The position numbers and the translations under genes were made by a program. This document shows, one piece after another, positions 3,558-34,411 of a stretch of 64,000 nt of DNA. The notes under the pieces were generated by a model. That model was given only the letters and a program-made list of their open reading frames with translations, had not been told where the DNA came from and did no database searches. This DNA is from a virus: positions 1 through 64,000 of the IMG/VR virus record IMGVR_UViG_3300050821_002122. The stretch is one strand, 5' to 3'. Position 1 is the first letter of the stretch, and the number at the start of each line of letters is the position of its first letter.

Positions 3558-4784
3558 ATGATTGAGATACCTAAGTTCCGCTACATGGATGATGTCCGCC
3601 GCTTCTTGGAGGGCATCGATAAAGAACTGGACGACAGCGGTAAGGTTCTGATTGAACAGCAGAAGCTCCTAGCCCGTCGGCTGCTGCCAGGTACCCCAGT
3701 TTCTGCCGTCATGGTTTTCAACGTAACACCAACAGATCGGAAAGATCAACTGTCTTTGGTCCGCAAGATGAAAACCAAGGTCGACCCATCGCTGACTAAG
3801 GTGGTGGTTCCGAACATGAAAAAGCTCGAAAGCCAGTACAACATGGCTGAAGACCTTTACGAGAAATTACGTGCCGTTGAGCAGGTGGAGACCCAGATGA
3901 GTCTGGCTTTCCCTGATCGTCGTGGTGAGCAGTTTGAGGCCACCATGCTTCAGATTTCCAAAATGAAGACCAAGATCGCCGACCAGCTGAAACTATGCCT
4001 GGGCTTTTTGTCGCAAGTCGCAGAAGCCCATGTGCCAGCGCAGTTCACCAAATACACGCAGATGATCGCCGACTTGGTCAACGAACATGTGATTTTCAAA
4101 GAGAGCCATCAGTTCCTATACGTGTCGGTTGATGCGAAAGGTAATCTGTTGTTCACCAACTACCTGATGCTTCAGGATGTTGCCAACGACAACGGTGAGA
4201 TTGCACCGCATCTGTATATCTCGGTACAGTGGAAGTTGGGCAAAGAACCGTCGATGACTGTCGATCTGAATCACGAGTATGAGGTGCCGAACAAGCTGAT
4301 CGGTGGTGGTGATGAAGTAGGTTCGGTAGGTGAAGCCGTTAAGGCAATCAGTGAAATGCTGGAGCTGGAAAACTTCAGTTCGGCTCTGGGTGTAGTGCCT
4401 TTGGCCTTGCAATTGAACGTCGATCCGACCTCGCTGAAACCCAACATTTTCTCCTACCGAGATATGATTGGCAAGATCGTGGTCGATGAACGCAGTATGG
4501 GATTCAGACTGCGTAAAGAAGTCAACAACCCAGCGTTGGTGACCGAAGTAGCCGCTCAGATTTACAAAGAGCTTAAGGCGTTGATGCGTACCAAAGACGT
4601 ACGCCTGACCATGAAGACCGAGAAGGTGAAGGGCATCTACACGCTTACCTTCACTTTCAACAAGATCGCACAGGGTGGTGAATTCAGCCACTACGATATG
4701 GAGTTCCTGCGCACCAAATTCGATCTGGATAATGCGCAACTTCGTAAGATCATGAACGTCATTAACAAGGGAAAAGAATCATGA
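3558..4784 (+). CDS. Hypothetical (probably virion) protein
   Basis: 408-aa ORF with a coiled-coil N-terminal half, within the structural operon. Confidence 0.6.
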   Translation: MIEIPKFRYMDDVRRFLEGIDKELDDSGKVLIEQQKLLARRLLPGTPVSAVMVFNVTPTDRKDQLSLVRKMKTKVDPSLTKVVVPNMKKLESQYNMAEDLYEKLRAVEQVETQMSLAFPDRRGEQFEATMLQISKMKTKIADQLKLCLGFLSQVAEAHVPAQFTKYTQMIADLVNEHVIFKESHQFLYVSVDAKGNLLFTNYLMLQDVANDNGEIAPHLYISVQWKLGKEPSMTVDLNHEYEVPNKLIGGGDEVGSVGEAVKAISEMLELENFSSALGVVPLALQLNVDPTSLKPNIFSYRDMIGKIVVDERSMGFRLRKEVNNPALVTEVAAQIYKELKALMRTKDVRLTMKTEKVKGIYTLTFTFNKIAQGGEFSHYDMEFLRTKFDLDNAQLRKIMNVINKGKES

Positions 4785-6280
4785 CCTTCGTCTTCAGTAA
4801 GGATGCTTTGACCGACACGATGGTTCAATGCGACGTCACCGACTTACTGAAGTTTGGTGAGACGCTGACCTCCATTGTACCTCAAGCAATCAGCCCAGTA
4901 ACCACACCAGCGCTGACTCTTAACCAAGTATCCGCCACCACCGATCCTGTGGTGGTACTTAACCTTTTCCAAGGTCAGGTTAATCTCAGCTACGGTTTTC
5001 AGTTGCTGATCACCACGTCTGCCCGAGTACTGACAGCGTTGGTTGCTGTGACCGTCACGCAGGACGTACAGGTTCCATACACGACCCAAAACCCAGAGGC
5101 AATTACTGATTTGGTCGACACCATTGAGAGTGGACAAGCCGCAATTGGTACCGCGGTGTTCTCGTTCCCGCCTGGTGTCGATCCTAGCGGTGGCTACGTC
5201 AACTGGGAATTCATGGATGTTCAAGGTGTGGTATATAGCTCCGGCAATGCCTTCGACTACCAAATCCAAAGTAACGGTCTTTCCAATACCGTGTTGGCGC
5301 GTGCGGTCATCAACATACCGTCGTCAACACCGGCCTCTGATGTGAACTCCAAGTATCAACTGCGGTACACGCTTACCCTCAATTCAGATTTGACCGATCA
5401 GCAGCAGTATTTCTCTGCCGAAAACGTAACGGTCATTGGTCTTACCACCGTACCTTTAGGTGTGCAAGATGCTGTTGAACTGCAGGGCACTACCGCCAAC
5501 ATGTCAATAGTGATTGAGAAGCTTTACGATACGGTCGCAGTCGAACTGTACCAAGATAATACCCTCATCGGTAGTACACCGGTAAAGGACTTCACGCGAG
5601 TTGGCAGCGGTTACTATTTCGCTGCGTCGTTCGATACGACTATGATACCAGCGTCGCTTGAAGCCTACACCGTGATTTGGAAATACTCGAATTCCAATGA
5701 ACCTAACTTGGTCTATACGGAGTCGGCCAATCTGTGGATCATAACACCTACCATCATGGGTGCGATCACCGACGTGAAGGCAAAGATCAATAAGGCCAGA
5801 ACCACTCTGTACGGACAGCCTGACATGCTGTTCCCACCAGAGACGGTCCTGTTGTGGCTTCGGCGAGGGAGAGATAACTTCAACAGTGGCCCTGGCGGCT
5901 TTACTACGTTTACCATGCTGAACGCAAAAGGTGGTGTACGCGAGTACTGGTTAATGTACACGGAGATGCTTGCCATAGAAGCGCAATACCTCGCTGAGGG
6001 CGAGAAGGCATTCAACTTCGCAGGCGCCGCTATAAGTTTGGACGTAGATCGCACTGGCTTCTTGGACAACGCGGCTAGCAAAATTCAGAGTCGCCTCGAC
6101 AATGAGTTCAAACCCTTTAAGCAAAACCTTATCATTAAAGGAAATACGTCCGGCGACGGCTCTGCTGATTTGTCGAAACTTCGGCAAGGTGCTTTGGGTT
6201 CGGTCGGTATCACGATTACGCCAGCATCGCCATGGGGTCCATACCGTTCCGGTCTGCCGTATCCGACAGTCAATCGCTAA
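4781..6280 (+). CDS. Putative head-tail adaptor/neck protein with N-terminal beta-rich (Ig-like) domains
   Basis: A beta-rich N-terminus precedes a helical C-terminal domain (ITDVKAKINK...LAIEAQYLAEGEKAFNF...ISLDVDR) resembling head-tail adaptors. Confidence 0.5.
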   Translation: MTFVFSKDALTDTMVQCDVTDLLKFGETLTSIVPQAISPVTTPALTLNQVSATTDPVVVLNLFQGQVNLSYGFQLLITTSARVLTALVAVTVTQDVQVPYTTQNPEAITDLVDTIESGQAAIGTAVFSFPPGVDPSGGYVNWEFMDVQGVVYSSGNAFDYQIQSNGLSNTVLARAVINIPSSTPASDVNSKYQLRYTLTLNSDLTDQQQYFSAENVTVIGLTTVPLGVQDAVELQGTTANMSIVIEKLYDTVAVELYQDNTLIGSTPVKDFTRVGSGYYFAASFDTTMIPASLEAYTVIWKYSNSNEPNLVYTESANLWIITPTIMGAITDVKAKINKARTTLYGQPDMLFPPETVLLWLRRGRDNFNSGPGGFTTFTMLNAKGGVREYWLMYTEMLAIEAQYLAEGEKAFNFAGAAISLDVDRTGFLDNAASKIQSRLDNEFKPFKQNLIIKGNTSGDGSADLSKLRQGALGSVGITITPASPWGPYRSGLPYPTVNR

Positions 6281-6291
6281 AGAGGCCTCGC

Positions 6292-7119
6292 ATGATTCCC
6301 CAGAAAGAAATAAATCTGGCCCTCAGTGGGTCAGGCTTCAAATTTCCCGCACACGTTGGCGCATTATTTGCTTTGGTCAACGCTGGTCTCAAACCCACCG
6401 ACCTGGCAGCAACCAGTGGTGGTAGTATCATTGCCGCACTGTATGCTACAGGCATGTATTCAGTAATCCAGCTACGCGATCTGGCAATGAACAATAATTG
6501 GTCCGCGATGCTGCGCCCTTCACCTTTGCTGTGGCCTTCTTTGAGCTACTGCAATGGCACAAATCTACACAAGTGGTTGCTGAAAATGACTAAAGGCATG
6601 ACGTTCGCCGATCTGGAAAATGACCTGATTATCATGGCGTCCGACATTGGTCACGAAGCACCATTTGAATTCAGCAAATTTTCCACACCGAAGACACGTA
6701 TTGCTGACGCAGTAAGGGCATCGACCGCAATACCTTTCGTGTACTCACCATATATCTACGAACCAATGTTCGAGGGTATTCAGTTGGCCGACGGTGGCCT
6801 TTGCAATAACATATCAATCGATAAGCTGAGTAGCAAGAACCCTCGCCTGGGTATTCAGCTGGTTGCAAACGACTCGACAACCGTAACACCACTGAATCGT
6901 GCTGGTCATCTGCTGAACCTGATGATGAATGCGTCGGAGGCAGCACACATCGACATCGCAGAGTTGAGTGGTGCTGAAGTTGTGTTTGTCGAAACAGGCT
7001 ATGCAAGTGGCTTGGATCGTAACATGGCAAATGGTATTCGCAGCCGCCTGTTCAACGCGGGTGTCGATGCAGTGCAGCCCTTTATCAAAACTCATAGCTT
7101 GGACCGGAGACAGCCATGA
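6292..7119 (+). CDS. Patatin-like phospholipase
   Basis: LALSGSG (oxyanion loop), ATSGG (nucleophile Ser elbow), ASTAIP and ADGG (catalytic Asp). Start set at 6292 after GAGG. Confidence 0.9.
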   Translation: MIPQKEINLALSGSGFKFPAHVGALFALVNAGLKPTDLAATSGGSIIAALYATGMYSVIQLRDLAMNNNWSAMLRPSPLLWPSLSYCNGTNLHKWLLKMTKGMTFADLENDLIIMASDIGHEAPFEFSKFSTPKTRIADAVRASTAIPFVYSPYIYEPMFEGIQLADGGLCNNISIDKLSSKNPRLGIQLVANDSTTVTPLNRAGHLLNLMMNASEAAHIDIAELSGAEVVFVETGYASGLDRNMANGIRSRLFNAGVDAVQPFIKTHSLDRRQP

Positions 7120-8154: not shown

Positions 8155-8489
8155 AGATCGAAGCCGCCCGTAGGCTTCATGCCTACGATAGCAAATGGTC
8201 GCAGAAGGTAGAAAAAGACATCAACATCAAGAACCAAGGTAAACCAGAGTTGAATGATGTTGGTCCGGATGCGGCTTTATTCAAGATGCAGCCCTCCGAA
8301 TTGGCCCGCACTCTAAAGAACAGGTACAAGGACGACTTCAAGGCAGCCATGTCGGCCATTTCGTTCTACGTGAATCGCGCTGGTAAGAAGCTTCTGTCGC
8401 CGGATAAGAATCGGCTCGACAAAGCTAAAGAAGAGTTGCGCAAACTTTATGGGAAATCAGATGAAGATAGAGGCAGCCAAGCGCCTTAA
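8151..8489 (+). CDS. DUF3175-like protein with MKIEAA leader (paralog of 7503)
   Basis: GGAGG RBS, MKIEAARRLHA, AAMSAISFYVNRAGKKL...LDKAKEELRKLYG. Confidence 0.7.
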   Translation: MKIEAARRLHAYDSKWSQKVEKDINIKNQGKPELNDVGPDAALFKMQPSELARTLKNRYKDDFKAAMSAISFYVNRAGKKLLSPDKNRLDKAKEELRKLYGKSDEDRGSQAP

Positions 8490-9900
8490 GGCGCACAATG
8501 GAAAAATCGCACATGAGGGCAACGTGTTGATGCTGGGCTTCGGCGGTGTTGGGCAGACGATGCTACCCCTAATGCTTAGGCACTTCACGACTCACCCCAA
8601 GAATATTCGTGTGGTAGAGAAAGATGACCATACCGAACTGTTTGCAGAGAAGTATGGTTCGACTGGTGTCCACTACGAGATACTGACTGTCACGCGGGAC
8701 AACCTGCATGAGGTATTGAGCGTGTTGAGCGCAGGTGACCTGTTGGTCAATCTGTCGACAGACATTGATGGCATCGAACTGGTAGAATGGTGCTTGCAGC
8801 AAGGTGTAATGTACATCGATACCTCAATCGAGCGGTGGCCAGACGAACCAGATGAGACGTTGCCTGATTTGGCAGAGCGCACACTGTATCACACGCATCA
8901 GGCAATACGCGAGATGGCATCGAACTATCCTGGTAGTGCGACCTGTGTTGTCACTCATGGTGCGAACCCCGGCCTCGTAACCTACTTCGTTAAAGCCGCG
9001 CTACTCGATATAGCGAAGGCTCAAGGCCTTAATGTCTATCCTCAAAACAAAGACGAGTGGGCCGAGTTGGCAAAAGACCTTGAGGTGAAGGTGATCCATA
9101 TTGCCGAACGCGATACTCAGTTGATGGACAAGCCTAAAGAGGTGAATGAGTTCGTGAACACTTGGTCATGCCACGGCTTCTGGGCAGAGGGTCGCGCACC
9201 TGCAGAATTGGGTTGGGGTACGCACGAGAACAAGCTACCTTATGGCGGCAATGAACATGACGAAGGCCCACAGAACGCTATTTACCTTAGCCAGCCGTCT
9301 GTATCGGTCCTACTCAAATCGTGGGTACCTAAAGGTGGTGCCTACAATGGTTTCTGTGTGCAGCATTCCGAGTCGGTCACTCTCAGCGAATACCTGACTA
9401 CCTCCGATGGTTCCTACAGACCGTCGGTCTACTACGTTTATTGCCCGTGCGATGCTGCGGTAGCCTCAGTGCATGAATTCAGGGGCCGTGAATTGGATAT
9501 GCAGGCGCATACCCGCGTAGCCAAAACAGAAATCGTAAGTGGTCGTGACGAATTAGGTGTCCTGCTGCTGGGCCACAAACTGAAAGCATGGTTCTTTGGT
9601 TCGCAGTTGGACATTGAGGAAGCCAATAGGCTGCTGCCAGGTGAGGGACCAACCACGATCCAAGTGGGCGCTGCCTTACTGGGTGCCATAGCATGGATGG
9701 TTGAAAATCCGAACGAAGGTTACTGCGAACCCGAGGACTTACCGCATGAGTTCGTACTAAGCCGTGCGATGCCATATCTTGGTCCTGTGGTCTCTACGCA
9801 ATCCGATTGGTCTCCGCACCAAGATCGTAACACGCTGTTCCCCAATGATGTCGATGCGGACCATCCGTGGACCTTTGCCAACTTCCAAATATCTAGCTGA
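8461..9900 (+). CDS. hss: Homospermidine synthase with MKIEAA leader
   Basis: Rossmann LGFGGVG, YIDTSIE.W, THGANPGLV, IHIAERD, NTWS..GF, HSES and YVYCPCD...S..E are all characteristic of bacterial-type HSS. Start set at 8461 (MKIEAAKRLKA). Confidence 0.92.
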   Translation: MKIEAAKRLKAHNGKIAHEGNVLMLGFGGVGQTMLPLMLRHFTTHPKNIRVVEKDDHTELFAEKYGSTGVHYEILTVTRDNLHEVLSVLSAGDLLVNLSTDIDGIELVEWCLQQGVMYIDTSIERWPDEPDETLPDLAERTLYHTHQAIREMASNYPGSATCVVTHGANPGLVTYFVKAALLDIAKAQGLNVYPQNKDEWAELAKDLEVKVIHIAERDTQLMDKPKEVNEFVNTWSCHGFWAEGRAPAELGWGTHENKLPYGGNEHDEGPQNAIYLSQPSVSVLLKSWVPKGGAYNGFCVQHSESVTLSEYLTTSDGSYRPSVYYVYCPCDAAVASVHEFRGRELDMQAHTRVAKTEIVSGRDELGVLLLGHKLKAWFFGSQLDIEEANRLLPGEGPTTIQVGAALLGAIAWMVENPNEGYCEPEDLPHEFVLSRAMPYLGPVVSTQSDWSPHQDRNTLFPNDVDADHPWTFANFQISS

Positions 9901-11001: not shown

Positions 11002-11886
11002 ATGCAACTATGTCCTAAATGCGGATCACCTCCGTCAGCGGTCTACGATGGCAACATCGCTGAATGCTATAACCATCATTTGTTCCGACTAAAGAAGAAA
11101 ACGAAAGGCTCTGCCATGCCCTCCTCAGTATATGATAAATCGTGCCCAACCTGCGCTGGTAAAATCGTGTCAACCGCTCGTATGGTTGATGATAGCCAAG
11201 CACCAACTTCGTGCATTAATGGGCATACGTTCATGCGCAGCGAAGCAGTAGCAGCACAAGTGAAAGCAGCCAAGCCTACATCGGTATACGACCTACCGTG
11301 CCCTACGTGTGCTGGTAAGATTATATCTACTGCCAAGATGAACGACAGCACTCAAGCCCCAACAAATTGTATTAACGGGCACACGTTCATGCGGGCAGAG
11401 GCCTATGCGTCAGCCAATAACAAGCTCGCACCGTTCTTCGGGCAGAACGCACTGAGTGCCAGTACCAAGCCTTTCAAGATCGAGGCAGCTGCCCGTCTGA
11501 AAGCAACCTTGTTGACCGCTGTTGAGAAGTTGATGGCAAAGTCCACGCCGGTTACGAAGATCGCAGAGAAGGGTATGCGCGATATTGACCATCAAATGGC
11601 GCTACTGGGTTATCAGGCGAAGACGGTTCAGAAACGTGCGTTCTATACCACTGACTTCGTTGAGCGCACCGACAATGTGGACGATGAACCGAAAGTATTC
11701 TCCATGACTGGCTGGCATGGTAACGGTCACTACGGTGACGAGAAAACCATCCTTGAGTTCTACGACAACCAGCGCAGTGAAAAACCAATCATCTCCATCG
11801 GCGTGTTGAGCGAAGAGAACATCAACGAGAAACGCCAGTTGGAGGTCGTCAAAGAAATTCTGGACTATGTACGCAAGCACGGGTGA
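11002..11886 (+). CDS. Zn-ribbon repeat protein with internal KIEAAARLKA motif
   Basis: Three CxxC...CxNxH units, then FKIEAAARLKA at about nt 11473. Confidence 0.7.
   Translation: MQLCPKCGSPPSAVYDGNIAECYNHHLFRLKKKTKGSAMPSSVYDKSCPTCAGKIVSTARMVDDSQAPTSCINGHTFMRSEAVAAQVKAAKPTSVYDLPCPTCAGKIISTAKMNDSTQAPTNCINGHTFMRAEAYASANNKLAPFFGQNALSASTKPFKIEAAARLKATLLTAVEKLMAKSTPVTKIAEKGMRDIDHQMALLGYQAKTVQKRAFYTTDFVERTDNVDDEPKVFSMTGWHGNGHYGDEKTILEFYDNQRSEKPIISIGVLSEENINEKRQLEVVKEILDYVRKHG
11125..11403 (+). repeat. In-frame tandem duplication, 156-nt (52-aa) period
   Basis: SVYDKSCPTCAGKIVSTARMVDDSQAPTSCINGHTFMRSEA at 11125 versus SVYDLPCPTCAGKIISTAKMNDSTQAPTNCINGHTFMRAEA at 11281. Confidence 0.9.
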
Positions 11887-12978: not shown

Positions 12979-13302
12979 ATGAAGATCGAAGCCGCTACTC
13001 GCATCAAAACCGTATACGCTGCTCAACAGGTCGTTGCTGCTGACGCGAACGAAAAGAAAGCCATCAAGTACCTGACGGAGGTGGGCTTCGCTGGTCTCAC
13101 GCTGAAAAGCAGTGGTGACAACGTCATCAAGTTCAAGTTCGAGTCCTACGACAAGAAGAAACTGGAGAAGGCTCTCGGCAAACCGAAGGCTTCCAAGTCG
13201 GAAGATGCGGGCGCCATTCGCTACGACATTCCTGGCGCTGGTGTCGTCGCTGTGTGGCCGGCGAAGAACGAAGTCATGATGAAAAACAGCAAACGCAATT
13301 GA
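12979..13302 (+). CDS. Hypothetical protein with MKIEAA leader; domain shared with the N-terminus of the 13923 protein
   Basis: MKIEAATRIKT. GF.GL......N.IKF....YDK..LE..LGKPK...GVVAVWP....V..KNSKR is shared with 13923. Confidence 0.75.
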   Translation: MKIEAATRIKTVYAAQQVVAADANEKKAIKYLTEVGFAGLTLKSSGDNVIKFKFESYDKKKLEKALGKPKASKSEDAGAIRYDIPGAGVVAVWPAKNEVMMKNSKRN

Positions 13303-13308
13303 TGAACC

Positions 13309-13337
13309 TGGGAGGCACAAAGGCCTCCCATTTCTTT
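13309..13337 (+). terminator. Intrinsic terminator
   Basis: TGGGAGGC / GCCTCCCA 8-bp stem followed by TTTCTTT. Confidence 0.6.
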
Positions 13338-13344
13338 AGGACAC

Positions 13345-13926
13345 ATGATGAAAATCGAGGCATTAACCCGTCTTATTTCTGTTAGTATAGTTCCCCAATC
13401 AACGGCTTTCTCGGAAGCACATGGTAAAGAAAGTCTGGAGCTCTACAGTAAGAGACCAGATCAGTACGTAAACCTGAATCGTAAAATCGTTAAGACCAAC
13501 ATTAGTGGCTTTACGATTGAGGTTGATAAACTCGGTGTCATGTACGATATATTCTTGGTGCATGACGGTAAAGCCGTTGGTCTTCTGGCTCTCACACCGT
13601 CCTCCCTGCTGCGACATGTTTATATCCCTGCGTCTTTTTTCGCAAAGGCGTACCGTGGTTTAGGCTACGCCAAGGCTTTGTACAAGTGGGTGCTAGACAA
13701 TAAAATGTCGCTGCTGAGCGATACCACTCAAAGTAAATACAGTTCAGCACTATGGCAGTCTCTGATTAAGGAATATGAAAACATTTGGGTTACCACAAAT
13801 CGCTTAGGAGTTGAGTTACTACCTGATAGCGATTTGGACTACTTTACCGAACCAGGTGCGCGTATGATCCTGATTCAGCGTGGCCTTGGTAAAGACCAAT
13901 TTATCAAAGAGAACAAAATCAAATGA
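13345..13926 (+). CDS. GNAT-fold acetyltransferase-like protein with leader variant MKIEALTRL
   Basis: AYRGLGYAKALY (acetyl-CoA-binding motif A), then LLSD..QS.....LW..L. Confidence 0.65.
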   Translation: MMKIEALTRLISVSIVPQSTAFSEAHGKESLELYSKRPDQYVNLNRKIVKTNISGFTIEVDKLGVMYDIFLVHDGKAVGLLALTPSSLLRHVYIPASFFAKAYRGLGYAKALYKWVLDNKMSLLSDTTQSKYSSALWQSLIKEYENIWVTTNRLGVELLPDSDLDYFTEPGARMILIQRGLGKDQFIKENKIK

Positions 13927-15128
13927 ACATCACTGCTGCTGTGGCCAACAGGCAAATGGCTCTGGACTTTCTGCGTGGTTTAGGTTTCCACGGTCTACGC
14001 TTCAAGGCTGAAGCCGACAACATGATTAAGTTCTTTTACTCCGATTACGATAAGCATGTATTGGAGGCCCAGCTCGGTAAGCCCAAGAGCGCCGATAAAA
14101 GCATTCGTTACAACTACCGCAAGGATGGTGTAGTTGCTGTTTGGCCAAACAACAAGACGGTAATTCTGAAGAATAGCAAGCGAGGCCTAAAGTCACCACC
14201 AGAGATAGACGAGCCACCGAAACCTGAGGTGAAGCCACCAGTTGATGTCGATAAACCGGAAGGTCCTCAGTTGCCGAAGAGTGGAACTGAGAACGATGAT
14301 GACAAGATACCACACGTAGAGATAGGTCCAGTTCTCCGTGCGCAGTTTGGCAGAGCCCGAGTGCACCGTGAATTGCAGTTGCCTTACATTAAAGAGTTAT
14401 GGCATTATCTTAACCAACACAAATTCCACAACGCACTGCATATGCCCAACCTGAGGGTCATGAAGGCGGTCAAAGGAACTAGCTTTAGGCTGCGCGGTTA
14501 TTGGCAGGCATATAACCGAGAGTTAGGAATGAGCCCGCGCTTGTTCAACGGTTCGGTCGAGTTCTTTGTGGAGGTCTTGTTGCATGAGATGTGTCACCAA
14601 GCTGTCAGCGAAATAGACAAGGTCCGGGATCGCACAGAGCAAGGACATGGTCCTCATTGGATTGCATGGATGCGCAAAGTAGGGCTCAACCCTAATCGAT
14701 ACGATCCTACCGAGAATAAGGTCTTTATGACCAATGAGGAACGGGATGCGTTGGAAGAACGTCAGGCGAAGCAGCGCAATATTCTTGACGTTGTGAAGGA
14801 AGAGGGCCTAGAACACACTGCACCCAAACCTATGATGAATGCGACAGTGCTGTGGAAAGCAGAAATGCACGACGGCATAATTGTGTGTAAGGCATTCGGT
14901 AAGAAGAATATGTGGGCCTTCTTGCCCTATGCTCAGATACGTACCTACAAGCACGGTCAGCTATTCAACTTCCCTTTAGTTTCGGAAGACTCGGTCTACA
15001 AACCACGCAGTGCCATGCCATTAGGATTGGGTGACCAATTGGTTGAGATGACCTTGACCGTCAAACAGCATTACGATACCAAAAAGCAAGATCGTGAAAA
15101 CAGACGCCTGGACAAGTTATGGTCGTAA
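13923..15128 (+). CDS. SprT-like zinc metalloprotease with N-terminal repeat domain and Pro-rich linker
   Basis: VLLHEMCHQ (HExxH) and GHGPHW..WM..VG are SprT hallmarks. A PEVKPP linker precedes them. Confidence 0.8.
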   Translation: MNITAAVANRQMALDFLRGLGFHGLRFKAEADNMIKFFYSDYDKHVLEAQLGKPKSADKSIRYNYRKDGVVAVWPNNKTVILKNSKRGLKSPPEIDEPPKPEVKPPVDVDKPEGPQLPKSGTENDDDKIPHVEIGPVLRAQFGRARVHRELQLPYIKELWHYLNQHKFHNALHMPNLRVMKAVKGTSFRLRGYWQAYNRELGMSPRLFNGSVEFFVEVLLHEMCHQAVSEIDKVRDRTEQGHGPHWIAWMRKVGLNPNRYDPTENKVFMTNEERDALEERQAKQRNILDVVKEEGLEHTAPKPMMNATVLWKAEMHDGIIVCKAFGKKNMWAFLPYAQIRTYKHGQLFNFPLVSEDSVYKPRSAMPLGLGDQLVEMTLTVKQHYDTKKQDRENRRLDKLWS

Positions 15129-15879: not shown

Positions 15880-16580
15880 TGGCTGCGCCATTTTTGGCCC
15901 ACCTCGGTATCAGCGACATCGATCAGGCACGTAGCCCTACAGCAGATGCTTTCCCGCATGCGTTCAACATCAATTGCAAACCGCAATGGGATCAGGCAGT
16001 AGGGCGTGTGGAACCTAGCGATGACCCCAAGGTTGACTGGGGCCTAGCTATCAGGAACTACGTTGAGCTATGTACCTCCACCGATCGGTATCCTTTCTCG
16101 AACATGAAGCAGTCGAGCAATGACCAAATCGTTGAGCACCTCAAGAATGCACGCAGGGCCGTGGTCAAATTCCTGAACAACTCCAAGTTCCTTAACCACG
16201 TGCAGATCAGAACCACTGCGCGTAAGGTAAAGATGAACAACATGGGGTTCTCGCTCGATGTGTTTGGTCAAGTCTATATCAAGGACCCCACATTCGTTAG
16301 GTGGCTCTTGGAAATGCCGTATCCTGGTTTCCGCATCAAGCATGAAGGCAGGTACATCAAACATATAGGTAATGATGTGACGATGGTGGTCTATAACGAA
16401 GGTGCCAACGGAACGCAACGGTGGCACATCGGCTACGAGATAAACTGCCGTCTGTTCCCTGATCTCCCAGGTCGTAATTTGCCGTCTAAGGCTGAGTTGG
16501 AGAAATTCATATTGGAAGTCTTGTTCATGCCAGTGCTGCGCTCCTCTCGGCCATACGGATATCACCGGAGGCTCTTATGA
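15876..16580 (+). CDS. Hypothetical protein
   Basis: 234-aa ORF with GAGG upstream, coupled to both neighbours. Confidence 0.6.
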   Translation: MMAAPFLAHLGISDIDQARSPTADAFPHAFNINCKPQWDQAVGRVEPSDDPKVDWGLAIRNYVELCTSTDRYPFSNMKQSSNDQIVEHLKNARRAVVKFLNNSKFLNHVQIRTTARKVKMNNMGFSLDVFGQVYIKDPTFVRWLLEMPYPGFRIKHEGRYIKHIGNDVTMVVYNEGANGTQRWHIGYEINCRLFPDLPGRNLPSKAELEKFILEVLFMPVLRSSRPYGYHRRLL

Positions 16581-21994: not shown

Positions 21995-22384
21995 ATGGTA
22001 GCCCGGTCCTTAGGTAACCACGCGCCTGGTTTCAAAGGTAGGCAGATGAGCGGCATCGGAACGGCGGCTAAGCCTATGGGACTGGGCTGGGATTCGTTCG
22101 TTGCCACCGACTCAGGCGATCAGCTGGTGATCCAGCTTTCGTCTATCGTGATAGGTGACATTAACTTCGGTGTCTTCTTTCAGGCATCGTCGGCGATTAC
22201 CGTCGAGTTCACGCTGAGCAATGTGGCCACTGCGACTGATCCCGATCCTGCTGCGAATGCGGCAACGATATGGGGTAACTCACTGTCGGTTCCCGCTGGT
22301 CAGATCACTCAGGCACCCGTACTGTTCACTGCCTGCCGTATCACATTCACTGGTCCTTGCGAGGGCTACATAGGAGTCCGATAA
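21995..22384 (+). CDS. Small beta-rich structural protein
   Basis: Position in the head module and a beta-strand-like pattern. Exact start uncertain. Confidence 0.55.
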   Translation: MVARSLGNHAPGFKGRQMSGIGTAAKPMGLGWDSFVATDSGDQLVIQLSSIVIGDINFGVFFQASSAITVEFTLSNVATATDPDPAANAATIWGNSLSVPAGQITQAPVLFTACRITFTGPCEGYIGVR

Positions 22385-23139
22385 TGTTTGAACTCCATAC
22401 TGAGCGTGATATACGCCACTTCTCGGAGCAGAAACCGAATGTCATCTCGGCTGCAGTTCAGTCGGAACAGGTAACCGATGCAAACGAAACACCGCAGTTG
22501 CTCAGCGGTCTCGACTGCGTAACCTGGTTACCTTACGCCGCCAAGTTGTACCACATCAGCCCTCGAATAGAGGACTACATTCTGGTGGTCACTCCTATCT
22601 GCCCATCGGATATCCCGAATCGAAACGGTATCGGGTTCCCTTTGAATGAGCTGACAAGATTCCAAGAACCTCCTGTCGCCCGGATGGCATACAAGACTTG
22701 GAGTGGTTGCCCCGTTCACTACGAACACGCGAATGAGGACCACACCAAAGCTTATGGCGTCATTCTGGATACCTCACTGCATAAGGTGTCTGGTTACGGT
22801 CAAGGCAAGCTGTGGAAGGTCATGGGTCTGCTGGCAATAGATCGGCTGAAGTACCCAAAGATGGCAGAGCGTATCCTGCACAATGAGGTAAACACTTACT
22901 CGATGGGCGCTTTAGTTGATTCGTTCTCGTGTTCGCATTGTGGTGAGCCGATGTCGGAGAAGTCCTACTGCCAGCATCTGAACCCGCGCAACGAAATCGA
23001 TTGGCAGGCACTGCCGAACTACCGAGGTCCAACATCGCTGGCATTCCGTAACAGCCATGGTATCCAAGGTATCGAAACTAGTATCGTCGAATCACCAGCG
23101 TGGTCGACGGCACTAAGCGACCACATCCTAACTCGATAG
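22384..23139 (+). CDS. Prohead (head maturation) protease
   Basis: PVHYEH (His), TYSMG (Ser), CSHC Zn motif and ETSIVESPA. Lies upstream of the scaffold and capsid genes. TAATG overlap at the start. Confidence 0.8.
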   Translation: MFELHTERDIRHFSEQKPNVISAAVQSEQVTDANETPQLLSGLDCVTWLPYAAKLYHISPRIEDYILVVTPICPSDIPNRNGIGFPLNELTRFQEPPVARMAYKTWSGCPVHYEHANEDHTKAYGVILDTSLHKVSGYGQGKLWKVMGLLAIDRLKYPKMAERILHNEVNTYSMGALVDSFSCSHCGEPMSEKSYCQHLNPRNEIDWQALPNYRGPTSLAFRNSHGIQGIETSIVESPAWSTALSDHILTR

Positions 23140-23379: not shown

Positions 23380-24702
23380 ATGCCTATCAAAGAACAACTG
23401 GCCAAGGTAAAAACCAAAGCTGGTTCTACGCACGATGGTAATGGTGGCGACGTGGCAATTCCGAATGCCGATCAGGATTTGGAAAACAACATGTTCGCCG
23501 ACACGCTGATCGATCCCGAAGACATGACCGGCGGCAGTACGCACTCCATGACTGCCAGCAAGAAGCGCGTCAAGGCTGACGCTGATTGCATCCAGCAGAA
23601 CGTGGGTACGTTGCCTAACGATTCGGAACCAGCCAAAGGCTATCTGGAAAACGCATCCGAAGAAGACTTCGAGGTCGATGACGACGAGATGGACGAAGAC
23701 GAAGTTGCGGCCGGTTTGGACCCAGCACTGACCAACAACAATTCGTCGACGCCGCTGGAAGCTGACGCCGAAGATGCTGATTGGGACGCACCGATCAGCA
23801 ACGCCGAAGACGACATCGAAGAAGGTGAAGGCGCTATCGCCGACGACGCGCAGGTTGAGGTCGAGGAACCAGAAGAAATGGCTTCCGGCGACGAAGAAAT
23901 GTCGTTGATGGACATCGATGAGGTTCCTGACGAAGACACCAATGTGGCGTTCGCTACCTTGGGTACTCGCGTCATGGTCATTCGCGCCAATCGCATCATC
24001 GCCACGATGACTGCCAAAACCGCCGCTTCGCTGGGTCGCGATGATGTCTATCTGACCGATCAGTTCCAAGAAGTAACGGCGATGGAAATCGGCAAACAAG
24101 GTCTTCGCAAAGGCTTGCGTTCGATGGGTTTCATCGAAGCCAAGGTGAACGTTGCCAAACGTAAAGCAGTCAATGCTCGTGTGGCATTGCTGGTCACCAA
24201 GCAAACGGCTGCCGTCCGCAAGGTCGCACAGGTCAACGCTGCTGCCATGGAACAAGCGATGGCTATCGCAGCCGTCGGTATTAACCGCAAATTCTTCCAA
24301 GGTGCAAAGAACGAACTGCGCGATGCACTGGAAGCAGCAATGGTTCAGGCAGGCGTGCGCAATGCTGGTCGTATCTTGACCACTGCATTCGCTGAAGCAG
24401 GTCCTGCCTACGCCAAGCAAATCTGCGAACTGGCCACCAAGCTGTCGATGATGCCGAAAGAAACCCGTGCTGGTTTCGTGGCTGCGTTGGACATGACTTC
24501 TGGTGACATGGAAGACGACGCCGATACGATCCCGGTCGGTGAGGAATCCATGGACGGTACAGAAGAAGACGATGTGATGCCAGCAACCATGGCAACCGCA
24601 GGCGTCACGCTTCGCAAAACCGGTAACACCGTACGTTCGGGTATGTTGTCCGTAGAAGCATCGGCGCGTTTGGCAGGTGACTTGCCGATGTTCATTCGTT
24701 GA
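23380..24702 (+). CDS. Scaffold/prohead core protein
   Basis: Very acidic disordered N-terminal half and helical C-terminal half. Position between protease and capsid genes. Strong codon bias. Confidence 0.7.
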   Translation: MPIKEQLAKVKTKAGSTHDGNGGDVAIPNADQDLENNMFADTLIDPEDMTGGSTHSMTASKKRVKADADCIQQNVGTLPNDSEPAKGYLENASEEDFEVDDDEMDEDEVAAGLDPALTNNNSSTPLEADAEDADWDAPISNAEDDIEEGEGAIADDAQVEVEEPEEMASGDEEMSLMDIDEVPDEDTNVAFATLGTRVMVIRANRIIATMTAKTAASLGRDDVYLTDQFQEVTAMEIGKQGLRKGLRSMGFIEAKVNVAKRKAVNARVALLVTKQTAAVRKVAQVNAAAMEQAMAIAAVGINRKFFQGAKNELRDALEAAMVQAGVRNAGRILTTAFAEAGPAYAKQICELATKLSMMPKETRAGFVAALDMTSGDMEDDADTIPVGEESMDGTEEDDVMPATMATAGVTLRKTGNTVRSGMLSVEASARLAGDLPMFIR

Positions 24703-25451: not shown

Positions 25452-26543
25452 ATGAATCAGAAAGTCAAAATCGGCGCGGCCAAAGTGCCAAGCATCGCTG
25501 TCGCAGCTTCCGAGTACCGGTTCCAAGGAAGCAACGAACGCGCGGTCGGCCAAAACGGCGAGCTTAACGCATCCAGCAAACGCGATCTGCTGAACCAACA
25601 GGTCAAGTTCCTGAGTGCAGCCTCCAGTGGCGCCCTGATGTCGAACGAAGCCAAGCTGAACGAGCAAGCCGAAGTCCGCGCATCCCGCGAGCTGACGCTG
25701 GCTGCATTCAACGACGCATCGGTGCATCGCGTCCTGGGTGAGCGTATGGCCGACAGCCTGTTCATCACTGCCAACCGTCAGGGCTTCATGCGCAAGTATC
25801 TGGCGCGCGTGCAAGTCGACCAAGGTACGGTGCCTCGCTTCCCACTGCGTACCAAAAACGTGACTGCTGTATGGTCGACTTCGCCAACGCGTATCGACAG
25901 CCAGATCACTCGCGACAAATGGTACACCCCGCCAGAACTGTCGATTGTGGCACGCCCGTTCGTTACCCAGAACGAGCTGAACCAATCGGCCGGCGACGTG
26001 CTGCAAGAGAAGTACGTCGAGGCGACGGAAGCGATCATGGTTGCAGAAGATCGCCTGTGGTACAACCAGGTCAACCAAATCGTCGGTATCGACAACAACC
26101 TGTCGATCATCAGCGGTCAGCTGACCCCGTTCACCCTGATGCAAGTGCAGACCAACGTCACTCGCTGGGGCCTGAAAGCACCGCACATCCTGATGGCTTC
26201 CGATCTGTATCAGGACATCGTCGGTAACAGCGAGTTCTACAACGCTGTCGATCCTGTCGCTCGCCACGAATTGCTGCTGACTGGCGAACTGGCTGTGATG
26301 TACGGCATGACCATCACTTCGGATGCGTATCGTCACCCTGAACACAAGGTGCTGAGCCAAGGCGAGTTCTTCGTCATCTCCGCAGCGCTGAACCCCGGTG
26401 CCTACTCGGATCGCGGTGGCCTGAACAGCAAGCCGACCGACATCGTCAACGAGAAAATCCCAGGCATGGGCTGGGTGATCCATGAAGAAATCGCAATCTC
26501 GGTTGCCAACAGCCGCTCGGTCGCCAAAGGCGTTCGCGTCTAA
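25452..26543 (+). CDS. Major capsid protein (HK97-fold type)
   Basis: 363 aa with the strongest codon bias in the region. Synteny protease-scaffold-decoration-MCP. Contains LQEKYVEATEAIMVAEDRLWYN and a C-terminal EEIAISVANSRSVAKG pattern. Confidence 0.8.
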   Translation: MNQKVKIGAAKVPSIAVAASEYRFQGSNERAVGQNGELNASSKRDLLNQQVKFLSAASSGALMSNEAKLNEQAEVRASRELTLAAFNDASVHRVLGERMADSLFITANRQGFMRKYLARVQVDQGTVPRFPLRTKNVTAVWSTSPTRIDSQITRDKWYTPPELSIVARPFVTQNELNQSAGDVLQEKYVEATEAIMVAEDRLWYNQVNQIVGIDNNLSIISGQLTPFTLMQVQTNVTRWGLKAPHILMASDLYQDIVGNSEFYNAVDPVARHELLLTGELAVMYGMTITSDAYRHPEHKVLSQGEFFVISAALNPGAYSDRGGLNSKPTDIVNEKIPGMGWVIHEEIAISVANSRSVAKGVRV

Positions 26544-32884: not shown

Positions 32885-33670
32885 ATGAACATCAATTTGC
32901 ATGGCCTCAATGCCAACACCGTAGCGATAACGGACTTCAAGATCGTGGCCTCCAAGCTGGCCAAGGTCGTCATCTCGTTCACTGGCAAGTTCGACAAAGC
33001 AGAAGTTACTGCTGCGCTGGGTCGTCAGCTGGGCAATCTGGCAACACCGGTCGAGAACTCGTTCCAGCGTGTCAAAGCTGGCTGCGCTGTCGGCTTCATT
33101 CGCGCTAACCAAGAGGTGCGCGTACCTGAACCGCAGGAGCTGAAAGCGTACAAGATCATGTCGTCCAACATCATGATGGACGAATCGGACAAGTCCTTGT
33201 GGGAAGTTCGCAAAGGTGCTTCGGGTACGTATCTGGCACGTCAGGGTCATGAGGACCTGTCAGAACTGGTGTCGGCTGCTACCAACCATGGCATCCTGAA
33301 TGTACCGCGCCTGAATCACATCGCGCAGGCTTCAGTCGCTCGTCGTGAGTTCGTTGCCTTCGCTTCGGCCTCCGGTGACATGGATTACGGCTTCTGCGTA
33401 GGCGTCAATCGCAACGATGGCATGCTGAAGGTTGTGGCTACCTCGGATCGTCAGGCTGTGGTCATCTCGTCGGAGCAGGTTGTGGCTTCGGTTCCTGTCG
33501 GCAAGAACGCACTTCAGCTGCCGCACGATGCACACGCACGCATTACGGCAAGTGGCATCAGCCGTACCGACGCGGATCAAGAGATCACGTACTACCAGAA
33601 ACTGTACGGCTACGATCCAGCGTACTTGGCTGAAGTTATCCGCCAAGTTGAAGGCACTACCGCAATGTAA
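32885..33670 (+). CDS. Probable virion structural protein
   Basis: GGAG RBS and capsid-gene-like codon bias. Confidence 0.6.
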   Translation: MNINLHGLNANTVAITDFKIVASKLAKVVISFTGKFDKAEVTAALGRQLGNLATPVENSFQRVKAGCAVGFIRANQEVRVPEPQELKAYKIMSSNIMMDESDKSLWEVRKGASGTYLARQGHEDLSELVSAATNHGILNVPRLNHIAQASVARREFVAFASASGDMDYGFCVGVNRNDGMLKVVATSDRQAVVISSEQVVASVPVGKNALQLPHDAHARITASGISRTDADQEITYYQKLYGYDPAYLAEVIRQVEGTTAM

Positions 33671-33681
33671 TTAGCCGTACA

Positions 33682-33716
33682 AAAGGGAGCGTCAGAGTTG
33701 ATCTGACGCTCCCTTT
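33682..33716. terminator. Bidirectional intrinsic terminator
   Basis: Perfect 15-bp stem AAAGGGAGCGTCAGA / TCTGACGCTCCCTTT between convergent blocks. Confidence 0.8.
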
Positions 33717-33746
33717 ACCACGCATGTACTATGTGCTTTAAGCACT

Positions 33747-33801
33747 AAAATAGCACCATAGCACCCCTTGCCTGGTAGTGCCTGAGGTGCTCTATGGTGC
33801 T
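33747..33801 (-). terminator. Hairpin downstream of the - strand replication block
   Basis: AGCACCATAG (33752-33761) pairs with CTATGGTGCT (33792-33801), followed by ATTTT on the - strand. Confidence 0.5.
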
Positions 33802-33802
33802 G

Positions 33803-34411
33803 TTACTGAGCTGCTGGCAGATCAACAACTGGAGCGGTTGGGTCAACTGCCAGAGCCGTTGGATCATCCACCACTGGTGCTTCTGCGGGTGCTTCGGTTG
33901 GAGCCGATTGCATTGCCAGCGCATCTTGCACAGCCTCACCAGCTGGTTGTGCATCCACAGCGGGCGATGCGTCAGCAACTGGAGCAGTTGGGTCCACAAC
34001 CGTTTGTTGAACGTCGGCTGCTGTACCATCGTTGGTCACCGCACTGTCAGCCACTTGCTGCACATCAGCGTTGCCGTCAGCCGCCGTATCGGTGGTGTCC
34101 GAACTGGCAGTATCTTGGGCGGCAGCGGCCACGATTTCGTCAGGGATGATGCCACCTTGTTGAGGACGGGTCGCCAGTGCCTCGATTGCTTGGTAACCAC
34201 CCTGCAGGCCTTGGATTGCGTTCTGCATGTTCTGGATAGCCGACGACGCGAATGGTGCCGTGTCACGCACGCCCTGGTTGTAGAAGAAACGGGCGTTGTC
34301 GATGGCGACTTGGCTCCAGGTTTCACGCCACGCTGGCGATGCCACATTCAGTGCGTTCTCGAAGCCGATTTGTACGGTGACGGTTTCGTCTTGGGTTGCT
34401 TGCTCGGTCAT
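33803..34411 (-). CDS. Acidic Ala/Asp/Pro-rich low-complexity protein
   Basis: 202-aa ORF with an AAGGA RBS and DPTAPVADA-type repeats. Confidence 0.65.
   Translation of the reverse strand: MTEQATQDETVTVQIGFENALNVASPAWRETWSQVAIDNARFFYNQGVRDTAPFASSAIQNMQNAIQGLQGGYQAIEALATRPQQGGIIPDEIVAAAAQDTASSDTTDTAADGNADVQQVADSAVTNDGTAADVQQTVVDPTAPVADASPAVDAQPAGEAVQDALAMQSAPTEAPAEAPVVDDPTALAVDPTAPVVDLPAAQ

Follow-up and report, generated by a model that had tools for sequence, protein, structure and literature searches.

A phage homospermidine synthase fused to a shared N-terminal leader peptide: a possible head-loaded enzyme of an RSL1-like jumbo myophage

In this study, we analyze a homospermidine synthase (HSS) encoded at positions 8461 to 9900 of a 64,000-nucleotide stretch of viral DNA, hereafter the window, which is the first 64 kb of a 189,689-bp viral contig (IMG/VR record IMGVR_UViG_3300050821_002122; approximately 80% complete according to CheckV). 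The enzyme starts with an 11-residue leader, MKIEAAKRLKA, that is common to many proteins encoded in the structural gene block of the same phage and that also precedes HSS in other phage lineages. By analogy with the capsid-targeting sequence (CTS) of phage T4, we propose with moderate confidence that this leader is a head-loading tag that makes HSS a cargo of the virion. Judged from its genes, the source is an RSL1-like jumbo myophage and a soil relative of Ralstonia phage RSL1, since its head maturation protease is 57-58% identical to those of the Burkholderia phages BcepSauron, BcepSaruman and BCSR5 and of Ralstonia phage phiRSL1, and its capsid protein shares 70-71% identity with the phiRSL1 and BcepSauron proteins.

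The leader family and its fusion to HSS

The leader follows the pattern M-K-I-E-A-A-x-R-[LI]-x-A and is present in HSS and 12 other open reading frames (ORFs), which amounts to 13 copies, one of them internal, in addition to one weaker copy. Ten other ORFs start with it (at 7116, 7328, 7503, 8151, 9908, 10189, 11890, 12979, 23147 and 32530). A degenerate DNA pattern for the leader yields 10 matches where 0.05 are expected, and none of 100 shuffles reaches 10. When a position matrix built from the 13 copies was scanned in all six frames of the 189,689-bp genome, these copies, which match by construction, scored 25.6 to 36.1 bits (35.4 for HSS), followed by the weaker copy with 16.9 bits and the best unrelated site with 11.4 bits. 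Every copy is located on the + strand, past the portal gene and ahead of the tail genes (7116-32814).

The leader is kept as a peptide, not as DNA. Across the 13 copies, Arg8 is encoded by all six arginine codons and Ala5 by all four alanine codons, and the mean nucleotide identity over the 33 nt is 67%. A DNA-level repeat or a shared translation-start cassette was considered and rejected because synonymous codons are scrambled among the copies. Among 19 tagged HSS proteins that are 55-74% identical to the window HSS, A5, R8 and L9 are invariant.

As read from the gene itself, the tag is translated as part of HSS. The leader is followed by the segment HNGKIAHEG and then by strand beta-1 (NVLMLGFGGVGQ), so that the Rossmann strand starts 9 residues past the leader, in agreement with the distance of about 8 residues given in the initial annotation. 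K14 to G20 is conserved HSS family sequence, K14 being nearly invariant in the alignment of tagged HSS, and query residue 11 is where the alignment with Legionella HSS starts. No in-frame ATG, GTG or TTG occurs between ATG 8461 and GTG 8524, and any start that retains residues 14-20 also includes the leader, which is consequently predicted to be translated. In addition, a Shine-Dalgarno-like GGGAA lies 5 nt upstream of ATG 8461, as at other leader genes. The initial annotation had regarded a translation start downstream of the leader as fatal to its reading; the question is answered in its favour, as the in-frame starts preceding the conserved HSS residues are found only at or before the leader.

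The enzyme and the distribution of its tag

The initial description of a full-length, bacterial-type HSS at 8461-9900 is borne out by both Pfam domains and by an end-to-end match to the solved HSS of Legionella, Blastochloris and Pseudomonas (E 3.5e-119 to 1.4e-108; 2PH5, 3.5e-119 over query residues 11-477; B. viridis HSS, 7e-113 over query residues 19-476). All 14 distinct sequences matched in the PDB search are named HSS. Passages of the report on the B. viridis enzyme (PMC4725965) list eight substrate-binding or catalytic residues (Asn162, Glu210, Trp229, Glu237, His296, Glu298, Tyr323 and Asp361). On alignment to the B. viridis chain, with the chain index equal to the native number + 3, all eight are present in the window HSS (N169, E216, W235, E243, H302, E304, Y325 and D363), as are the 'ionic slide' residues D103 and E124, while B. 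viridis Glu232, whose backbone oxygen serves as ligand, is His238. Judged by these residues, the gene encodes a catalytically competent NAD-dependent HSS, converting two putrescine molecules to sym-homospermidine and NH3. It is presumably a long-resident gene and no recent import, since its GC content and GC content at third codon positions (0.522/0.571) match those of core phage genes (portal, 0.509/0.578; protease, 0.520/0.590).

The first four residues are untraceable in solved HSS. An AlphaFold2 model of the window HSS (19-row alignment; moderate, with a mean predicted local distance difference test (pLDDT) score of 69) was used solely for the observation that the leader does not pack on the core: it is predicted as a short helix at residues 5-10, unpacked, with pLDDT below 50 over residues 1-13.

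The tag had initially been described as if bolted onto an acquired enzyme, and its distribution supports this. The HSS of phiRSL1 (61% identical over 96% of the length) is untagged and starts MDKVGNIQLDGF, and that of phage Motura (34% identical) is untagged as well, starting MQGRNVF. These are the only phages with an HSS match in a collection of 50,697 phage records, and a megablast of the HSS gene against this collection gave no match. Cellular HSS was sampled by a profile scan of one genome per prokaryote species with two peptide patterns from the tagged group, which covers the nearest cellular relatives and not all HSS; of the 33 loci found, 31 had a captured N-terminus and none of these 31 has a leader-like start. 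A cellular HSS sharing the N-terminus, the finding that the first reading had named as contradicting it, was thus not encountered, and wherever context existed tagged HSS is restricted to phage contigs. A single-protein scan of viral contigs gave untagged HSS only, and a profile scan was needed to reach tagged HSS; cluster look-ups gave no names for the tagged proteins.

An N-terminus of the AA-x-R-L type is found in 18 of the 120 best database relatives besides the window HSS. The full set of 122 rows comprises the best database relatives, three viral-contig sequences and Motura, leaving out P0001 (duplicate of P0050), P0008 (N-terminally truncated) and P0048 (634 aa); 22 rows are tagged. A second tree was built from 63 hand-chosen rows with the N-terminal columns removed. 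The 20 tagged rows kept fall into three groups, namely a clade of 5 that includes the window HSS, a clade of 11 that is tagged throughout, and a grade of 4 in which untagged proteins of the phiRSL1 and MQKLARP types are nested. Well-supported branches force at least three changes of tag state, a count in which the tree cannot separate gains from losses. The simplest story would be one old fusion, two or more losses and a separate gain in the window's clade. The phylogeny that had been suggested for a phage-only leader thereby reveals a fusion older and wider than was known at the outset. Two further N-terminal patterns were observed among HSS loci. A large group starts M-[KNR]-L-x-[DE]-I-K-G. 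At three loci with untagged HSS on viral contigs that are not RSL1-like (L010, L011 and L016), small ORFs right after HSS start MKIKEAILEKM, MKIKDFLLENM, MKIHDVILEPM or MRLIDIQ, which could be chance or another N-terminal signature.

Tagged HSS is accompanied by other tagged genes. Among 29 of the 80 profile-scan loci on viral contigs, which were examined, five carry tagged HSS and represent three phages (G001, G002 and G003). Among metagenome loci, 6 of the 77 with a readable N-terminus are tagged and add the lineages L143 and L157/L158. All six lineages with flanking DNA have leader ORFs beside the tagged HSS: 12 in the window, 12 in G001 (L013), 3 in G002 (L017), 6 in G003 (L018-20), 1 in L143 and 2 in L157. 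The same check at five loci with untagged HSS (L010, L011, L014, L016 and L044) found no leader at ORF starts.

The most informative relative is G001, a complete 218,861-bp genome with terminal repeats whose protease is 58% identical to that of the window phage. Its leader ORFs number 23, with 18 at 3.4-38.8 kb around the protease gene and 3 at the right end; through the terminal repeat, the two ends are adjacent. The G001 consensus is M-x-L-N-A-A-x-R-L. Ala-Ala is preceded by Asn in G001 HSS (KINAA) and in 17 of the 22 other G001 copies, versus Glu in 11 of the 13 window copies, HSS included; by this co-variation, the HSS tag follows the leader variant of its own phage. In G001, the next gene after HSS encodes a tagged NUDIX hydrolase (Pfam, 6.6e-9; phrog_1198, 1.3e-20) and the second a tagged protein that weakly matches the T7 0.7-type kinase family (phrog_15752, 3.4e-6); a tagged, weakly GNAT-like ORF is present as well. 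This pair of tagged NUDIX and tagged kinase-like genes after the tagged HSS (L089; G001 contig 33171-34373) looks like a tagged enzyme kit.

Phage phiRSL1 is kin to the window phage, a jumbo myophage with the same order of portal ... helicase ... protease-scaffold-capsid genes. However, its HSS gene (ORF110) is located upstream of the portal gene among genes of nucleotide and NAD metabolism, and an untagged NUDIX gene precedes the untagged HSS, whereas in G001 a tagged NUDIX gene follows the tagged HSS. Passages of PMC9992855, citing Shaw 2010, report that phiRSL1 HSS is biochemically active; they also state that Motura has a homolog. A leader-like motif that is one residue longer (I-x-A-A-x-x-R-L-x-[AG]-[ST]) is found in phiRSL1 ORF120, ORF123, ORF124, ORF127 and ORF133, all between the portal and scaffold genes. 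It is directly followed by [ST]-E in ORF127 and ORF133 and by L-E in ORF123.

Proposed head loading and the alternatives

On the reading that we favour, the variable N-terminal tip of HSS would have been replaced by the common 11-residue tag of the phage lineage. The tag would be a short helical address peptide, analogous to the T4 CTS, that attaches otherwise unrelated proteins, in a varying set of 13-23, to a component of the assembling prohead, by which they would be enclosed and carried in the virion. HSS could act inside the head during DNA packing, making a DNA-binding triamine in place; it would need only putrescine, since in HSS NAD(H) is a bound prosthetic group that is regenerated each cycle. 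Alternatively, HSS may be delivered with the DNA and act at once in the next cell.

According to passages of PMC5694885, the T4 CTS is an N-terminal peptide of 10-20 residues through which internal proteins and the enzyme Alt enter the scaffold core; it is removed by the prohead protease and also loads foreign proteins. Similar to the CTS of IPI-III and Alt, the leader is a short N-terminal peptide on unrelated proteins whose genes neighbour those for portal, protease and scaffold. Its anatomy fits the T4 model because a single short peptide is shared by many unrelated proteins, its copies are all encoded on the structural strand in the interval from portal to tail region, a small tagged protein is encoded between the protease and the scaffold, and several tagged proteins are enzymes (HSS and GNAT in the window, NUDIX in G001). 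This suggests that the tag serves head loading and that HSS is present, with a role, in virions. Differences from T4 exist as well: the CTS is cut by gp21 after Glu, while the window leader has no enrichment of such a site; the cargo sets differ; and loading is proven in T4 and inferred for the leader.

Two other viral systems are comparable in part. The heads of phiKZ and SPN3US contain many internal or ejection proteins, including a virion RNA polymerase, and paralogs share identical N-terminal peptides; the propeptides described in passages of PMC5694885 are mostly longer than 100 residues and cut at A/S/G-x-E, in contrast to a window tag of 11 residues with no clear cut site. The chlorovirus PBCV-1 encodes, like the window phage, an HSS of its own, and passages of PMC7019647 place this HSS among the virion-associated proteins and mention a virus-encoded polyamine acetyltransferase. 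PBCV-1 differs in being a eukaryotic giant virus with an internal membrane, and the same passages (PMC7019647) describe no targeting peptide. The initial statement that packaging of HSS was not known therefore stands for phages, but not for viruses overall. Already known are phage HSS, virion-associated chlorovirus HSS and tag-directed head loading in T4. In literature listings and passages, we found no shared leader in RSL1-like phages, no tagged or packaged phage HSS, no metabolic enzyme naturally fused to a head-type tag that is shared across a lineage, and no conservation of such a fusion across uncultured RSL1-like lineages.

Several points weigh against head loading. To our knowledge, the leader and the T4 CTS have no sequence likeness. 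Likenesses of the leader to the capsid N-terminus (KIGAAK) and to the scaffold C-terminus (VEASARLAG) were considered and rejected, as the leader matrix scores neither above 8 bits. Within the phage HSS clade, the tag appears to have been lost at least twice, the phiRSL1 and MQKLARP types being nested among tagged proteins, and is thus dispensable for phage HSS use, because these lineages keep HSS. As to particle composition, the phiRSL1 virion comprises 25 proteins according to passages of PMC5348500, and the passages of the phiMatilda preprint concern whole-cell infection proteomics, not a virion proteome. A [AGS]-x-E site of the phiKZ/SPN3US type within 15 residues past the tag occurs in 11 of 36 leader proteins versus 71 of 334 background windows (21%; binomial p 0.12), and without significant cut-site enrichment after the tag we do not call it a propeptide. 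The junction residue in most tagged HSS is Gln, not Glu, and AHE (HSS residues 17-19) was rejected as a cut site, since the K-[LIY]-x-x-[HP]-x-G segment is HSS's own and is also present in untagged HSS. If injected, a dimeric 53-kDa HSS must unfold to pass the tail. Finally, a charge-neutralizing role is not to be assumed, because PBCV-1 virion polyamines neutralize only about 0.2% of DNA phosphate according to passages of PMC7019647. As to the protease itself, the capsid protein carries A-[ST]-[ED] before Y/F/L near residue 20 in the 38 of 120 relatives that the search pattern put in register (A in 38/38; S in 29, T in 8 and D in 1; E in 34, D in 3 and Q in 1), so the head maturation protease may cut after acidic residues.

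The main alternative is that the leader is a functional peptide tag with a purpose other than virion loading. It might recruit its carriers to a phage or host partner, such as a chaperone, a membrane assembly site or a late-stage complex, or set their stability, and HSS would then be a late cytoplasmic enzyme whose triamine product serves packaging or translation, presumably like phiRSL1 HSS, which has no tag. We rate this alternative as possible but somewhat unlikely. It is compatible with selection at the peptide level that has no physical tie to the head, with the absence of enriched cut sites, with tagged enzymes that are equally sensible in the cytoplasm and with the use of untagged HSS by phiRSL1 and Motura. 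Yet all 13 window copies and 21 of the 23 G001 copies (with the three at the right end included) lie inside the head/tail gene block, including the window leader gene between protease and scaffold, and the window phage has no tag on its glutathionylspermidine synthase, which is a partner enzyme of polyamine metabolism in the cytoplasm. Moreover, the predicted short, Ala-rich and weakly amphipathic helix does not correspond to a known secretion or membrane signal.

The fusion could also be a neutral leftover, in which HSS was placed within a leader gene, or underwent recombination at the 5' end, and kept 11 codons that are tolerated without function. The N-terminus of HSS is indeed variable, and disordered in the solved enzyme; the last 10 codons of the upstream DUF3175 gene extend into the HSS leader, as a cassette insertion would predict; and some lineages have apparently lost the tag. 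A neutral origin of this kind is nevertheless decidedly unlikely in view of the invariant A5, R8 and L9, the Glu or Asn that the HSS tag shares with the other leaders of its phage, the occurrence of tagged HSS in three tree groups and six lineages with context, and a composition like that of core genes, which points to an old arrangement. That HSS is translated from downstream of the leader (GTG 8524, TTG 8527 or ATG 8530) and is hence untagged is highly improbable: a Shine-Dalgarno-like GAGGG does lie 4 nt upstream of GTG 8524, but such a start would place the first residue within strand beta-1 and omit the conserved segment K14 to G20, ribosomes from ATG 8461 read into HSS in frame with no stop, the context of ATG 8461 is the same as at 11 other ATG-led leader genes, and the in-frame architecture is kept in relatives.

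Head loading as proposed here could be part of a larger system. Encapsulin cargo-loading peptides are short terminal peptides that address diverse enzymes into an HK97-fold shell; they are usually C-terminal and bind the shell protein directly. By analogy, RSL1-like jumbo phages might possess an encapsulin-like cargo system in which tag and docking partner coevolve within a lineage and serve a kit of 13-23 proteins, with HSS as an in-capsid nanoreactor. Such a kit would include metabolic or host-takeover enzymes (HSS, NUDIX hydrolase, GNAT and the kinase-like protein), and inward-diffusing putrescine would be converted to DNA-bound homospermidine, a condensing counter-ion at the site where a 190-230-kb genome is packed. 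We consider this extension unlikely.

Phage-encoded polyamine enzymes are at present interpreted as auxiliary metabolism in the cytoplasm (PMC9992855, in passages). If head loading is true, the HSS fusion would be a natural counterpart of engineered T4 CTS fusions and would indicate that phages recruit ordinary metabolic enzymes as virion cargo. It would also open a direct route to the old question of the origin of phage-head polyamines and of their weight in the packing of very long genomes. A ready-made comparison is available between tagged HSS (window phage, G001) and untagged HSS (phiRSL1, Motura) in otherwise syntenic genomes. Cultured relatives are so far limited to phiRSL1, BcepSauron, BcepSaruman, BCSR5 and Motura. 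Should the tag work as proposed, its 11 residues would provide a compact tool for loading proteins into large capsids.

Gene block and accompanying features

Portal, head maturation protease, scaffold-like protein, capsid protein, tail sheath and tail tube were identified in the window with PHROGs and ORF listings (Table 1). From the portal to position 13302, neighbouring genes overlap or directly adjoin, and no good terminator-like hairpin precedes the one at 13309-13330; HSS is therefore probably on a portal-proximal late transcript. NCBIfam gave no match for HSS, the protease, the GNAT protein or two leader genes, and a PDB sequence search returned no hit for the protease and no useful one for the GNAT protein.

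Table 1. Coordinates of HSS, leader genes and head genes in the window
Feature	Coordinates	Strand	Evidence or remarks
Portal (head-tail connector) gene	4781..6280	+	phrog_17327, E 4.7e-69; starts the tightly packed gene run that holds HSS
Leader gene, 71 aa	7116..7331	+	MKIEAANRLVA
Leader gene, 54 aa	7328..7492	+	MKIEAAQRLRA
Leader gene, 86 aa	7503..7763	+	DUF3175
Leader gene, 112 aa	8151..8489	+	DUF3175 paralog; last 10 codons overlap the HSS leader in another frame
HSS coding sequence, 479 aa, with N-terminal leader	8461..9900	+	ORF list; PF03435 and PF16653; solved homologs
Leader MKIEAAKRLKA of HSS, residues 1-11	8461..8493	+	Matrix score 35.4 bits, third best in the genome
HSS residues 12-20 (HNGKIAHEG), HSS's own N-terminal segment before strand beta-1	8494..8520	+	Alignment of tagged HSS
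NAD-binding Rossmann domain of HSS (predicted)	8524..8949	+	PF03435, E 1e-23 at residues 22-163; GFGGVG at residues 26-31
HSS-like catalytic domain (predicted)	8959..9762	+	PF16653, E 6.4e-19 at residues 167-434; N169 just upstream
Leader gene, 94 aa	9908..10192	+	MKIEAANRIQA-TE
Leader gene, 268 aa	10189..10995	+	
ORF with internal leader F-KIEAAARLKA	11002..11886	+	Leader at 11473-11505, TTC for ATG, after two zinc-ribbon-like repeats
Leader gene, 93 aa	11890..12171	+	MKIHAARRLLA
Leader gene, 107 aa	12979..13302	+	Followed by the best terminator-like hairpin of the region (13309-13330)
GNAT-family acetyltransferase, variant leader (M)MKIEALTRLIS	13345..13926	+	PF00583, E 8.9e-5, 23.2 bits versus cut-off 20.7; matrix 25.6
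56-aa ORF, weaker leader-like start MKITASKRLQAA	16577..16747	+	Copy at 16580, 16.9 bits; just upstream of the giant helicase gene
Head maturation protease	22357..23139	+	phrog_18299, E 5.3e-81
Leader gene, 66 aa	23147..23347	+	Between protease and scaffold genes
Acidic scaffold-like protein	23380..24702	+	ORF listing and PHROGs
Major capsid protein	25452..26543	+	N-terminus ...VAASE/YRF
Leader gene, 94 aa	32530..32814	+	

A glutathionylspermidine synthase homolog (188888-189685; PF03738, E 1.3e-107) is located outside the window, untagged and cut by the contig end. In phiRSL1 and Motura, the HSS gene is paired with a glutathionylspermidine synthase gene. The GNAT gene of the window (13345-13926) parallels the situation in PBCV-1, which encodes a polyamine acetyltransferase beside its virion-associated HSS.

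The ORF at 11002-11886 may have arisen by gene fusion, or its product may be a protein in two parts that carries an address or cut site internally. The second DUF3175 paralog lacks the stop that the first has after ...LRKLYG(E), and it looks as if the HSS cassette landed at its end. The scaffold C-terminus (24652-24702, ...SVEASARLAGDLPMFIR) resembles the leader in the window phage only; the scaffold tails of phiRSL1, BcepSauron and G001 keep A-x-x-L-x-G...P-F, without R-L.

Directly after the portal gene, a patatin-like phospholipase (6292-7119; PF01734, E 5.2e-25) without leader joins the first leader gene by an ATGA overlap. A SprT-like metalloprotease-domain protein (13923-15128; PF10263, E 3.9e-12) has a start, MNITAAVANRQMA, that faintly resembles the phiRSL1-type leader.

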